DNA of 64,000 nt from Candidatus Binatia bacterium. GTDB taxonomy: Bacteria; Desulfobacterota; Binatia; UBA9968. The notes under the pieces are model-generated. The model searched no databases. It was not told where the DNA came from and worked only from the letters and a program-made list of their open reading frames with translations. The stretch lies in assembly GCA_041483675.1 (NCBI GenBank), contig JBGPGE010000001.1:868-64867 (forward strand), in the 5' to 3' direction. Position 1 is the first letter of the stretch. Each line of letters opens with the position of its first letter. The translations under genes were made by a program, and so were the position numbers. Below are positions 23,846-27,128 of this stretch, in pieces.

Positions 23846-23949
23846 GCCCCTACTTCTTCGGCCAGGGGCCTTTGGCCTCGGGGAAGATGGTCGGGGAGAT
23901 GCAGAGGGGAGAAGTTCCGTAGGAGTCGGAGGGCGAGATGTCGCCGGAT
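23846..23949. repeat. 104-bp direct repeat, left copy: a truncated duplicate of the 3' end of the gene at 27029..27439 (att-like)
   Basis: About 90% identical to 27025-27128. On the minus strand it encodes SGDISPSDSYGTSPLCISPTIFPEAKGPWPKK*, preceded by an in-frame stop, so it is a remnant rather than part of a gene. Confidence 0.8.
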
Positions 23950-24335
23950 CAGCCGCGCCACCGTGTCAAGTTTATTTTGCTTCGTCGCCGCTGAAATTGG
24001 CGCGCCAACCCGATCCCAGCGCAAACCATCCACACCGCCAAGATCGGCATGAGGCCGAGACTCACACGGTCCATCCCTTCGCGGCTAAACGTCAGAACCC
24101 ACCACGCGAAAATTGGACCGGCATGGCCGTAGATCGACGGCGTCAGCGCGAATGCGAGAACACCTCTTCGCGCCACAACGCGAAGATGCTCGTTCGTGAT
24201 ACGTGCGGCGAGCTTCCGCCCAACGACCGCGATAATGATGCTCGGAGCCTACGGCCAGCATAGCGAAAAGAGCCATGACGAATATGAATTCGAATCCCTG
24301 CGGCAATATCGCCTCCGATCACCTGGGGGCTTAAG

Positions 24336-24758
24336 TCAACCGGCCTTTTGAAGACTCCACATACGATACACACAGTGAGTTTTGGCCTCGCTGCATAGAA
24401 AGACCCAAACACTGTCCTCGGAGGTGTACTGCCCGGCCGCATAACCCTCTTGTGTTTTTCGGCGAACGTAATCCTCCAGATCGAAGTAAGGACTTTTCAA
24501 GGAGGTGTAAGGCCGGAGGCGGGCTTGAAATCCCCGATGGTCTGCGAAATCAAAGTAAAACTCTCCTTCAGAAGTGTTTACGTCGAGATTGTTTTCGGTG
24601 TAAATATTCTTTGCCGACGGAGGCAGAATATCGGGAAGCCAACCTCGTTCGAACAGGCGATCTTTTCGCGCATCGTCCAACGTCGGGTAGCGATGAGAGA
24701 CGGTGTCACAACCCAAGATCGCCAAAGCGCAAAGCAGTAGGCAAATGCGCGTGATCAT
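24336..24758 (-). CDS. Hypothetical lipoprotein (islet cargo)
   Basis: Signal peptide with lipobox LAILGC. 140 aa with no recognisable family. Confidence 0.45.
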   Translation of the reverse strand: MITRICLLLCALAILGCDTVSHRYPTLDDARKDRLFERGWLPDILPPSAKNIYTENNLDVNTSEGEFYFDFADHRGFQARLRPYTSLKSPYFDLEDYVRRKTQEGYAAGQYTSEDSVWVFLCSEAKTHCVYRMWSLQKAG

Positions 24759-24815
24759 ATGCCTTCTGACCTTATGGATAAGCGACGCGTCTTCCGCGTT
24801 CGCTGCATCCTATTG

Positions 24816-25598
24816 TCAGCCATCGCCGCTCTCATCGTCGGACCTGCCGAAGAGATGCTTGAAGTACCTCTCCGGTGAATTGAGGAAATCCCGGGTGACC
24901 CGAAAGTGTTCCGTCTCGCTGTAAGCGACCTCTCCGATCGTATCCCCGTCCAGGCTGAAGAGGACGGCCGCCGGGTAGCTGAGGATGATGGGCGAATGAG
25001 TCGAAATAAGGAATTGAGCGTGGCCCGGCCTCTCCAGATCGTGGATGATTCTGAGAAAAGAAAGTTGCCGTTGGGGCGAGAGCGCCGCCTCCGGCTCGTC
25101 GAGGATGTAGATGCCGTGCTCGAAACGGTTTACGAACAGCGAAAGGAAGGACTCGCCGTGGGATTGCTCGTGGAGCGACTTACCGCCGTACGCGCGCAGA
25201 TTCGAAGCCTGCTCAATGTAAGTAGCGAAGTTATAAAAACTCTCGGCGCGCAGGAAAAAACCTTCCGTCACCTTCGGCAGCCATGAGAGCCGAAGCGCCT
25301 TTGCGAGGTCAGAGCGGTCTCCGAAGGTCGCGAAGTGATGATCGCGGTTTCCGCCCTCGGGATTGAATCCACAGCACTCCGCAATGGCTTCAAGAAGTGT
25401 GGACTTCCCGCTGCCGTTCTCGCCGACAAAGAAGGTGACGTTGCTGCGGAACCCGAGGTCGATGCCGCGCGAGAAGGCCCTGACGTTGAACGGGTATCGG
25501 GACGGATCCATCTTCTCAGGAAGACTCACGACGCGCCGGAGGAAAGGCGCCGATGTAGGTGACAACCCGGCCCGTGCCTTTCGGTTCGGCTTCATCAT
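24816..25598 (-). CDS. Stand-alone AAA/ABC-type ATPase (AAA_21-like; islet cargo)
   Basis: Walker A GENGSGKST, Walker B/D-loop ILDEPEAALS, and H-loop STHSP. 260 aa with no TM partner. Confidence 0.65.
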   Translation of the reverse strand: MMKPNRKARAGLSPTSAPFLRRVVSLPEKMDPSRYPFNVRAFSRGIDLGFRSNVTFFVGENGSGKSTLLEAIAECCGFNPEGGNRDHHFATFGDRSDLAKALRLSWLPKVTEGFFLRAESFYNFATYIEQASNLRAYGGKSLHEQSHGESFLSLFVNRFEHGIYILDEPEAALSPQRQLSFLRIIHDLERPGHAQFLISTHSPIILSYPAAVLFSLDGDTIGEVAYSETEHFRVTRDFLNSPERYFKHLFGRSDDESGDG

Positions 25599-25631
25599 AT
25601 TCCACCAGCTGAACGTTCGCGGTGAGTCGCG

Positions 25632-25916
25632 TTACTCGACTACCATATCTACCTCCACCCCATCCGCCTTGAGATAGTCGATCAGCTCTCGAAACCGTTC
25701 AAGGATCGCTCTCGCTTCATCGTACATCGCGCGAAGGCCGCAAACGCGCAGCGGGTACGGAACCTCGATCCGGTTGATTCCGCCGGTCCCGATGCTGTCG
25801 TTAAGTGCGTCAAGATTGTGGCCATGCCACTCCGGCGCGCCAACTGCCCGGAGAATCCCCTCGTAGAAATCCTCTTGAGTTTTCCAGGCGCTGCCGTCGA
25901 GCAAAATTTCACGCAT
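25632..25916 (-). CDS. Barstar-like (barnase-inhibitor family) immunity protein
   Basis: 94 aa. The HGHNLDALNDSIGTGG ... motif resembles the barstar ENLDALWDCLTG core. Confidence 0.55.
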   Translation of the reverse strand: MREILLDGSAWKTQEDFYEGILRAVGAPEWHGHNLDALNDSIGTGGINRIEVPYPLRVCGLRAMYDEARAILERFRELIDYLKADGVEVDMVVE

Positions 25917-25946
25917 TGCGGTTCCCCTACACGATATGTGCCCTGC

Positions 25947-26204
25947 TTAGGTTTGAAACTTCTCACCTTTCCAGCAGTAAATCTTCACATGTTCCAACAC
26001 CTTTCCACCTTTGTTCGTCTCTGACAGCTCAGGCCCTCCCCAAGCCGGCGTCATTAAGTGATCATGATTGAAATAACCATCTTTGGTGTGACGGACCAAG
26101 TTCGAAAGGACCGTAGAGAAGTGCTGTAACCCCGGAGCGTCGCCGTGGATTTCAAGGCACTGTTCTGCCTCGTCAAATTCAAAGCTGAGTAGAAACTCTG
26201 ACAT
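25947..26204 (-). CDS. Small hypothetical protein upstream of the barstar-like gene (possible immunity-type protein)
   Basis: 85 aa ORF, co-oriented, 31 nt upstream of the barstar-like gene. It shows no similarity to the barnase nuclease. Confidence 0.35.
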   Translation of the reverse strand: MSEFLLSFEFDEAEQCLEIHGDAPGLQHFSTVLSNLVRHTKDGYFNHDHLMTPAWGGPELSETNKGGKVLEHVKIYCWKGEKFQT

Positions 26205-26473
26205 TAGATTCCGTCTCCTTTCAGCACCTCAACTGTCGAACAGCCGTCTAACCGGCGATATCCGCCGCGGAGTATTACGAACGGCACTATGATCTGTTCG
26301 AATCACAACTCGACGCAATATCTCTCATTTACAAAAATTCTTCAAGAATTATTTTGCGGGCAAACGCGGGGCGGCCTATCCGGCTACCGACCTGCGGCCG
26401 AGATCTCGTCGAACTATACAGCCGGCACAAGGCTGCTCTATTTCGATGGCGTGGGAATGACGCTCAAGGAAAC

Positions 26474-26722
26474 CTAGGCCGTCTTGGCCAGAGGCTCCTG
26501 GTTTTGGATGGTGATCTTGGGATGTGGGTTCGCGCTAGGAATCGGGAGGCGTTGGTCCTTCAGAAGCGCGACATGCTCTTCGATTCCCCACTTTGCCTGG
26601 TACAGGCAGTCCTCGACCGAGTGACCGACGCCCGTAAATCCTTCGAGATCAGGGGAGTAGAAACCAAAGAACGTCGGATCGTCGGTCGCTTCGATGATCA
26701 ACGAATATTTCAAATCAATCAT
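26474..26722 (-). CDS. hicB: HicB-like antitoxin (UPF0150 N-terminal domain only)
   Basis: 82 aa. YSLIIE ... FFGFYSPDLEGFTGVGHSVEDCLYQAKWGIEEHV is the typical HicB N-domain. It follows hicA with an 11-nt gap. Confidence 0.7.
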   Translation of the reverse strand: MIDLKYSLIIEATDDPTFFGFYSPDLEGFTGVGHSVEDCLYQAKWGIEEHVALLKDQRLPIPSANPHPKITIQNQEPLAKTA

Positions 26723-26732
26723 ATGCCCCCTC

Positions 26733-26942
26733 TTACTTCAGCCCGGCTGCCTTGAGGATAGCGTTGCACGTCCCGGTCGGAATCTCTTTTACACCATGAT
26801 AATCGACTCGGATTAATCTGTCCACCCCCGGCTTTCCGTAATAGCGCACTGAGCCTTTCTCCTTGAGGAGCCTAAATCCGTTCTGTTCTAATAGCCTGAC
26901 AAGCTCGCTGAATCTCACGGTCGGTCCCCTCGCAGTTGTCAC
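26733..26942 (-). CDS. hicA: HicA-like mRNA interferase toxin (possibly catalytically altered)
   Basis: 69 aa. FSELVRLLEQNGFRLL ... IPTGTCNAILKAAGL matches HicA. The usual GSHH motif reads GSVRYY. Confidence 0.7.
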   Translation of the reverse strand: MTTARGPTVRFSELVRLLEQNGFRLLKEKGSVRYYGKPGVDRLIRVDYHGVKEIPTGTCNAILKAAGLK

Positions 26943-27024
26943 CGGATGTTATGCGATTTGGTAGGGCAGTGACAAGCGGAAACTTGTAAGGCGGATGGAA
27001 CGGGCGAGGGGAGCAGCCGTCGCC

Positions 27025-27128
27025 GCCCCTACTTCTTCGGCCAGTGGCCTTTGGCCTTGGGGAGGATCGTCGGAGAGATGCAGAGGGGAAAACTGCCGTA
27101 GAAATTGCTGGGAGAGATGTCGCCGGAT
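27025..27128. repeat. 104-bp direct repeat, right copy (3' end of the intact gene 27029..27439)
   Basis: Partner of 23846-23949. It encodes the native C terminus ...SGDISPSNFYGSFPLCISPTILPKAKGHWPKK*. Confidence 0.8.

Follow-up and report, generated by a model that had tools for sequence, protein, structure and literature searches.

A low-GC islet bracketed by copies of a protein-gene 3′ end carries hicAB and a small row of immunity-type genes in a Candidatus Binatia contig

In Escherichia coli, the prophages e14 and 21 integrate into the 3′ end of icd, where an icdC pseudogene accompanies the icd gene. The icd/icdC repeat around e14, which we measured for comparison, is 165 nt long with copies that are 92.7% identical. 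Another kind of accessory locus is found in bacterial competition: polyimmunity loci are co-directional, closely spaced, toxin-gene-free and strain-variable (Zhang et al. 2012, PMC3482391), and are termed ‘extended’ when they hold four or more genes (PMC3482391), while the acquired interbacterial defence (AID) and rAID-1 clusters of Bacteroidales lie on mobile elements and have a skewed guanine-cytosine (GC) content (Ross et al., 10.1101/471110). Here we describe a locus that resembles both kinds of system, in a 64 kb stretch of DNA from a Candidatus Binatia bacterium (contig JBGPGE010000001.1; the whole stretch is hereafter called the window). It is a 3.07 kb islet of low GC content that lies between two copies of the 3′ end of a small secreted-protein gene, which we call G, and that carries hicAB followed by a row of immunity-type genes. 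We put the probability at about one half that the islet descends from a horizontally acquired element that integrated at the 3′ end of G, in the way e14 does at icd, and has since decayed, its cargo being made up of an addiction module and a small heterogeneous polyimmunity array.

The islet is bracketed by a direct repeat of 106 nt (23844-23949 and 27023-27128), the two copies of which are identical at 92 of 106 positions (87%). An earlier note on this DNA, made from the letters alone, had recognised the repeat and put the identity at about 90%, which is slightly generous. The pair ranks third among the self-matches of the window (self-BLAST E 4.8e-30), and the repeat is present in two copies. 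On the minus strand, the right copy (27023..27128) comprises the last 32 codons and the stop of G, together with 6 nt past the stop, and is indeed the end of the open reading frame (ORF) at 27029..27439 (minus strand) to which the note had assigned it. The left copy (23844..23949, minus strand) is an orphan pseudo-3′ end of G, again of 32 codons and a stop, that reads in register with the right copy, the same TAG terminating both. The in-frame stop reported directly upstream of this copy is also there, a TGA at 23949-23951. The core of this G-3′-like sequence is CTGGCCGAAGAAGTAGGGGCG. Of the 32 encoded residues, 25 are shared by the two copies and seven are changed (N/D, F/S, S/T, F/S, L/F, K/E and H/P); only about three of the seven changes are conservative, so the description of the substitutions as mostly conservative was overstated.

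The DNA between the repeats has a GC content of 55.1%, compared with a window mean of 61.3%, and no other 3 kb of the window is as low; the value lies more than three standard deviations under the mean. A local dip at 26.2-26.4 kb, which the earlier note had pointed out, is real but is not confined to that position, as the whole islet is low. GC at third codon positions is likewise reduced, at 0.55-0.74 in the islet genes against a host mean of 0.80. Every gene between the repeats is encoded on the minus strand, in agreement with the first description of the islet.

This arrangement is like that of e14 in icd in three respects: foreign DNA lies between direct repeats of the 3′ end of a protein gene, the copy next to the gene leaves it intact while the distal copy is an orphan pseudo-end, and the copies have diverged (165 nt at 92.7% for icd/icdC, 106 nt at 87% for the islet). 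The two loci also differ. Whereas e14 retains intE and xisE and measures 15 kb, the islet is without a recombinase and has 3.1 kb left; amino-acid changes are far commoner in the islet repeat (7 of 32 residues, against 2 of 54 in icd/icdC); and, unlike in e14, a rearrangement has put other DNA in place of the host flank past the distal copy.

The cargo begins beyond a spacer that runs from the G stop to hicA (26943..27022) and holds a promoter-like site at 26975..26946. The hicA toxin gene (26733..26942) encodes 69 residues that score 49.8 bits against Pfam HicA_toxin (cut-off 27) and match PHROG 353, which is annotated as a toxin. It is followed by a hicB-like antitoxin gene (26474..26722) encoding 82 residues, with 21.6 bits against HicB_lk_antitox (below the cut-off of 27) and a match to the HicB-like PHROG 497 (E 2e-7). 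In having the toxin gene first, the antitoxin gene 10 bp on and a HicA above the Pfam threshold, the pair is like type II HicAB modules; its HicB departs from the norm of these modules in its 82 residues and its Pfam score, and in having the N-terminal HicB fold only, with no DNA-binding domain detected.

Behind hicAB, four genes follow one another with intergenic gaps of 30, 33 and 57 bp: an Imm32-family gene (25947..26204), a Barstar-family gene (25632..25916), a gene for a compact stand-alone ABC-type ATPase of 260 residues with AAA_15/AAA_21 motifs in Pfam (24816..25598), and a lipoprotein gene of the YbbD_head family (24336..24758), whose product of 140 residues carries the lipobox LAILGC. 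The Imm32-family protein, of 85 residues, scores 24.4 bits when taken alone, below the Pfam cut-off of 27. An exhaustive search retrieved 191 relatives, however, and PF15566 is matched by 40 of the 41 aligned members (39 relatives and the window protein; best E 3e-12), which places the protein in the Imm32 family; the toxins given for Imm32 in PMC3482391 are Ntox12, Ntox37 and Ntox7. The Barstar-family protein (94 residues) reaches 45.1 bits against a cut-off of 23.4 and covers profile positions 1-87 of 96; no barnase-type partner was found near its gene. For the lipoprotein, the precomputed Pfam assignment to PF26610 (YbbD_head) is shared by 86 of 87 homologues, and the family profile aligns with the N-terminus of E. 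coli YbbD (E 2e-4, probability 47%). Its AlphaFold model is confident (predicted local distance difference test, pLDDT, 91) and has no close solved relative.

The last gene of the islet is a remnant encoding a DUF6404-like two-helix membrane protein (23949..24248; Pfam DUF6404 E 6e-4, 20.6 bits, below the cut-off). It consists of the C-terminal half only (profile positions 56-113 of 115) and has no start codon, and its TGA stop abuts the left repeat; a scan of the other reading frames did not reveal the N-terminal half. Compared with the gene calls first made for the islet, those of hicA, the barstar-like gene and the ATPase hold, as HicA and Barstar pass their Pfam thresholds and the ATPase matches AAA_15/AAA_21, while hicB stays below its threshold but has its PHROG match. 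What had been described as a small protein of 85 residues and a lipobox lipoprotein can be refined to the Imm32 family (PF15566) and to YbbD_head (PF26610), and in annotation these two ‘hypothetical’ genes of 85 and 140 residues can be labelled as immunity-type accordingly.

Neither the islet nor those larger ORFs of the window that were scanned yielded an integrase, a transposase, a secretion system or a polymorphic toxin. For integrases, the scan took in the islet ORFs and nearly all larger ORFs outside the 12-18.6 kb block; the left flank (12-23.7 kb) was covered through the precomputed Pfam hits of a collinear relative, L013. This agrees with the earlier statement that no integrase remains. 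A search for integron-like or attC-like repeats inside the islet gave matches at chance level only, and an Rfam scan over 22-30.5 kb returned nothing. At the DNA level, the whole islet had no match among phages, and among plasmids it matched only the conserved core of the ATPase gene.

Imm32, barstar, the YbbD_head lipoprotein and the dead DUF6404-like gene are best read as a row of orphan immunity-type genes in which the ATPase gene is embedded. Such a row is a small, heterogeneous locus like those of polyimmunity or AID, of an ordinary, known kind rather than a new defence system. It would neutralise toxins delivered by competitors, and hicAB would stabilise the islet as an addiction module. 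The likeness lies in a co-directional, close row of unrelated immunity families without polymorphic toxin genes (no polymorphic toxin domain was detected in the islet), in the skewed GC content, in a content that varies between close relatives, and in a mobile or variable setting. The islet is smaller than the ‘extended’ polyimmunity size, with three intact immunity-type genes and one remnant, and it lacks two features of rAID-1, namely an XerC/D-type (XerD-like) recombinase and integron-like intergenic repeats. It is also unlike AID clusters in having an ABC-type ATPase inside the row and hicAB upstream, and in its Binatia-like environmental host, in contrast to gut Bacteroidales.

The family of the lipoprotein is informative in this context. 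In E. coli K-12, ybbD is a pseudogene that stands after rhsD-ybbC(PF15631)-ylbH; this place after rhsD is the position of an orphan immunity gene, and YbbD_head is seen in such Rhs orphan-immunity positions. In L019 (JGI 3300053092, 439-2149), a YbbD_head gene adjoins both an Imm-NTF2-2 (PF15631) gene and a phage-type integrase that is truncated, and a DDE transposase follows at some distance. Its pairing of PF15631 with YbbD_head is the same as that of ybbC and ybbD downstream of rhsD, which supports the immunity reading of YbbD_head. A literature search on YbbD as an immunity protein yielded nothing relevant.

G itself (27029..27355, minus strand) encodes a secreted protein of 109 residues. 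The ORF extends to 27439, and the earlier note had taken it as a gene of 136 residues (27029..27439) starting at TTG 27439; homologues instead begin at 27355, giving 109 residues with an N-terminal signal peptide, or at 27403, giving 125 residues. Among 5.8 billion proteins there are 8 homologues of G, all about 71-99% identical, and scans with a G alignment recovered only distant N-terminal relatives, at 3 loci in genome_contigs and 5 loci in metagenome_contigs. G is a narrow, lineage-specific gene. The window’s own G protein (P0367) is also encoded on a 16.9 kb JGI/Logan contig.

The repeated part of G belongs to its tail, residues 74-109, for which an AlphaFold2 model built on a shallow alignment gives a pLDDT below 50 from residue 74 onwards and which is accordingly predicted to be unstructured. 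In every pair compared, the tail evolves faster than the gene body, with 81-90% identity against 92-94%. Since the tail is fast-evolving and predicted to be unstructured, a replacement of the gene end there would be tolerated. The drop in identity at the tail was also considered as a crossover point, which could be ruled out as the drop occurs in all pairs and reflects fast evolution.

Relatives show where G normally stands and how the islet comes and goes. A gene order of CBS followed by G is present in L002, L004 and one P0005 contig (ERZ27296333). In L002 (90% nt identity; JGI 3300010391) and in contig ERZ27301951, the order is CBS-G-ilvC with no islet and a G-ilvC gap of about 190-220 bp, the gene upstream of G being cut and unannotated in ERZ27301951. 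L002 and the window are homologous as far as 27021, no more than 2 nt from where the right repeat ends. L004 (92% nt identity; SRR22388117) shares 50 nt of the spacer between G and hicA before its contig ends, and 0 of 1000 shuffles reach the score of this match. An apparent sharing of about 55 nt past the G stop by L002 was not supported (shuffle test, p about 0.1), and only L004 shows it.

In L017 (ERZ27247320), the lipoprotein gene, preceded by the terminal part of the ATPase gene, is found just upstream of ilvC, both at 88.6% nt identity to the window. The ilvC genes of L017 and L002 have orthologous promoter regions, which places the same cargo in the G-ilvC neighbourhood of a relative. 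The islet is therefore variably present, in line with the earlier note: it is missing from L002 and from the ERZ27301951 contig, where G stands directly before ilvC, and its ATPase and lipoprotein genes lie by ilvC in L017. L017 ceases to match the window at the stop codon of the lipoprotein gene, and the segment 23844-24335 is absent. In its place (L017 731-1015), the lipoprotein gene is followed by an unrelated 94-residue gene and then by ilvC, a difference that points to turnover of cassettes at this end of the islet.

Two further observations concern the surroundings of G. Upstream of the CBS gene, window positions 27935-28530 and L004 positions 1-354 have no homology, though CBS-G is 92% identical, and this difference means that the CBS-G pair has variable flanks on both sides in the lineage. 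In L003 (Logan SRR22388042), a 5′-truncated, frameshifted copy of G at 182-682 is joined head-to-head to a homologue of window positions 41644-41766, after which comes a convergent gene for a solute-binding protein. Either another genome holds a second G pseudogene here, or the contig is chimeric.

On the other side of the islet, gltX (22346..23767, plus strand) is the last gene of a conserved left-hand synteny block. It is 92% identical to its counterpart in “Deltaproteobacteria bacterium RIFCSPLOWO2_12_FULL_60_19”, and other matches are named Candidatus Binatia. Four relatives, at about 90% and about 75% nt identity across gltX, retain the whole left-hand block, and in each of them tRNA-Gln(CTG) and tRNA-Glu(CTC) begin no more than roughly 30-40 bp behind gltX (at 11458-11610 in L013, 11458-11609 in L015 and 7338-7489 in L016), with differing DNA after them. 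In the relatives, glnS-gltX and the two tRNA genes form a conserved cluster. The corresponding site in the window, between the gltX stop and the left repeat (23768..23843), is missing both, and there is no tRNA gene in all 64 kb; set against the cluster in the relatives, this indicates that the cluster was split by a rearrangement in the window’s lineage. The joint at gltX thus marks a rearrangement that took two tRNA genes from a conserved place, and the islet occupies precisely the point where two conserved blocks meet that adjoin each other in none of the relatives seen.

Past the end of gltX, L013 has no homology to the window, and because gltX C-termini are naturally variable the breakpoint cannot be placed inside gltX. 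Just after tRNA-Glu in L013 (11610-11760) there are three copies of the motif ‘GCTCATGGCAGGCC’, then an HTH_37 (antitoxin-like) gene and PhoD. As the DNA past the tRNAs differs between relatives, it may be a tRNA-linked variable region. The empty site predicted by the earlier note, in which gltX would be directly followed by the 136-residue gene, was not found; four relatives have tRNA-Gln and tRNA-Glu in that place, and the empty site that does exist is G-ilvC.

The repeats had originally been interpreted as the attL/attR signature of a decayed integrative islet, and this interpretation is partly supported, by the geometry, the low-GC accessory cargo and the variable presence, but not by an empty site between gltX and G. 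We infer an old, integrase-mediated origin, probably by the mechanism of e14 and 21 at icd, in which the incoming element would have brought a sequence resembling roughly the last 100 nt of G. Site-specific recombination at the 3′ end of G, in the G-ilvC setting, would have left G with an intact end, now the right copy, and would have stranded the other copy as a pseudo-end on the far side of the insert, now the left copy. The recombinase and probably most of the element would have been lost later. A subsequent rearrangement, most simply an inversion, with translocation or deletion as further possibilities, would then have joined the far end to the gltX block and displaced tRNA-Gln and tRNA-Glu; one inversion that broke the DNA immediately behind gltX and immediately behind the left copy would be enough.

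A number of findings weigh against this history. Since tRNA genes follow gltX in four relatives, the sequence abutting the left copy is a secondary rearrangement joint and not the original downstream flank of G, and for integration a further event has to be assumed, with a break no more than about 10-25 nt from where the repeat ends. In none of the relatives seen are gltX and G adjacent, and among them there is no true empty site with both flanks of the window. In L017, the only relative in which the far end of the cargo is visible, that end lacks a further copy of the G end. No recombinase domain came up in the islet ORFs or in the larger window ORFs that were scanned with Pfam, the islet has neither an excisionase nor recognisable arm-type sites, and the repeat core has no match in a viral contig collection. 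When the 14 differences between the repeat copies were polarised with three relatives, 6 were derived in the right copy, 7 in the left copy and 1 was ambiguous; with this tie, neither copy can be called the native ‘host’ one or that of the ‘element’. A divergence of 13% between the copies means that the event is old or that the two ends come from different lineages. Finally, unless the L003 contig is chimeric, its truncated copy would indicate that G fragments can arise by other routes.

The main, though less probable, alternative is that no recombinase was involved and that the locus is a scar, in which a partial duplication of G, or the destruction of a second G, took place at a recombination hot spot downstream of G where cassettes accumulated through illegitimate or homologous recombination, the left copy being brought to gltX in the course of the rearrangement by which the tRNA genes were lost. 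Compared with the closest relatives, synteny is broken on either side of the islet (gltX/tRNA-Gln-tRNA-Glu on one side and G/ilvC on the other), and the sequence upstream of the CBS gene differs in L004 too. The related cargo of L017 has a different far end, with the 94-residue gene and no G fragment, and L003 holds another truncated G fragment in a different context, although it may be a chimeric short-read contig. The absence of an integrase fits such a scar, as does the equal distance of the two repeat copies from L004, the closest relative (89.6% identity for the left copy and 90.6% for the right). The scar would, however, require at least as many events as integration, namely a duplication, the loss of the rest of the duplicate and the insertion of cargo exactly between the copies. 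It would also leave unexplained why the repeated segment starts in the coding tail, ends just past the stop and exactly brackets low-GC DNA, like known att duplications. A chimeric join in the metagenome-assembled contig, at the islet or at the gltX joint, is very improbable. The window does come from a metagenome-derived contig of 132 kb, and its gltX joint is unseen in any other lineage, but a JGI contig (L001, 3886 bp), which may share a sample with it, spans 20665-24550 at 99.95% identity, a range that takes in gltX and the joint, the left copy and the DUF6404-like remnant, as well as the start of the lipoprotein gene. Moreover, copies that are only 87% identical would not trigger an assembler misjoin, and the right junction is independently supported by L004.

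Within the immunity row, the ATPase calls for separate consideration, as the earlier note had proposed that it forms, together with the lipoprotein, an uncharacterised two-gene anti-phage or abortive-infection system. The two genes are indeed adjacent, 57 bp apart and co-directional, and the pair is retained in L017. At 88.6% nt identity, however, this retention reflects recent common descent rather than independent conservation, and homologues elsewhere are unpaired: no ATPase gene adjoins the distant lipoprotein homologues in L018 and L019, and on three plasmids the ATPase homologues lie among unrelated genes, with no lipoprotein. The ATPase gives partial PADLOC matches to mad3, AriA, GajA and PtuA, and it shares with Gabija GajA, Septu/retron PtuA, PARIS AriA and MADS MAD3 the Walker A, signature, Walker B and H-loop motifs of an ABC/SMC-like fold. 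Yet the PADLOC, NCBIfam and PDB matches are limited to generic ABC motifs (residues about 38-80 and 153-220), and the scores lie far under the family cut-offs (NCBIfam PtuA 43 bits against 500, MAD3 29.6 against 420). Unlike the proteins of Gabija, Septu, PARIS and MADS, the ATPase is minimal, its 260 residues holding no nuclease, TOPRIM or insertion domain and thus no effector domain; no GajB, PtuB or AriB partner is encoded in the islet, and its homologues are single genes in varied contexts. The family name and the contexts of the lipoprotein point instead to immunity against Rhs-type toxins. Taken together, these comparisons leave a two-gene defence module unsupported and improbable, and motif matches alone should not lead annotation to name this ATPase a defence system. 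The wider 260-residue ATPase family (plasmid matches H1-H25) is about 45-53% identical across Bacillota, Pseudomonadota, Actinomycetota and Cyanobacteria, with no conserved neighbours.

If an integrated relic with an immunity array is the correct reading, orphan-immunity islets occur outside gut Bacteroidales, in an uncultured soil or sediment Binatia-like lineage, and here they dock at the 3′ end of a protein gene, which would be a modest extension of known biology. It is further conceivable, but unlikely, that the unstructured 3′ tail of G in the G-ilvC interval is a dedicated, recurrent docking site for small immunity islets in this Binatia lineage, mobilised in trans by a recombinase whose gene lies elsewhere, and that the embedded ATPase is no mere passenger but a functional part of the array and a new immunity or defence factor.

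Elsewhere in the window, two pairs of intergenic direct repeats are found at 29872-29985 and 44215-44328 (91%, 114 nt) and at 28376-28455 and 37154-37232 (89%, 81 nt). Both resemble dispersed elements of the repetitive extragenic palindromic (REP) or miniature inverted-repeat transposable element (MITE) type, and spurious ORFs across them read ‘SRESGNP / LDSRLRGSD’. Two flagellin paralogues (32086-32958 and 36103-36969, both on the minus strand) are 82% identical over 878 nt and flank fliS, fliD and a fliT-like gene. A sugar-modification island at 37-61 kb, with NeuB, a DegT aminotransferase, a cytidylyltransferase, two asparagine synthase paralogues and several methyltransferases, probably serves flagellin glycosylation.

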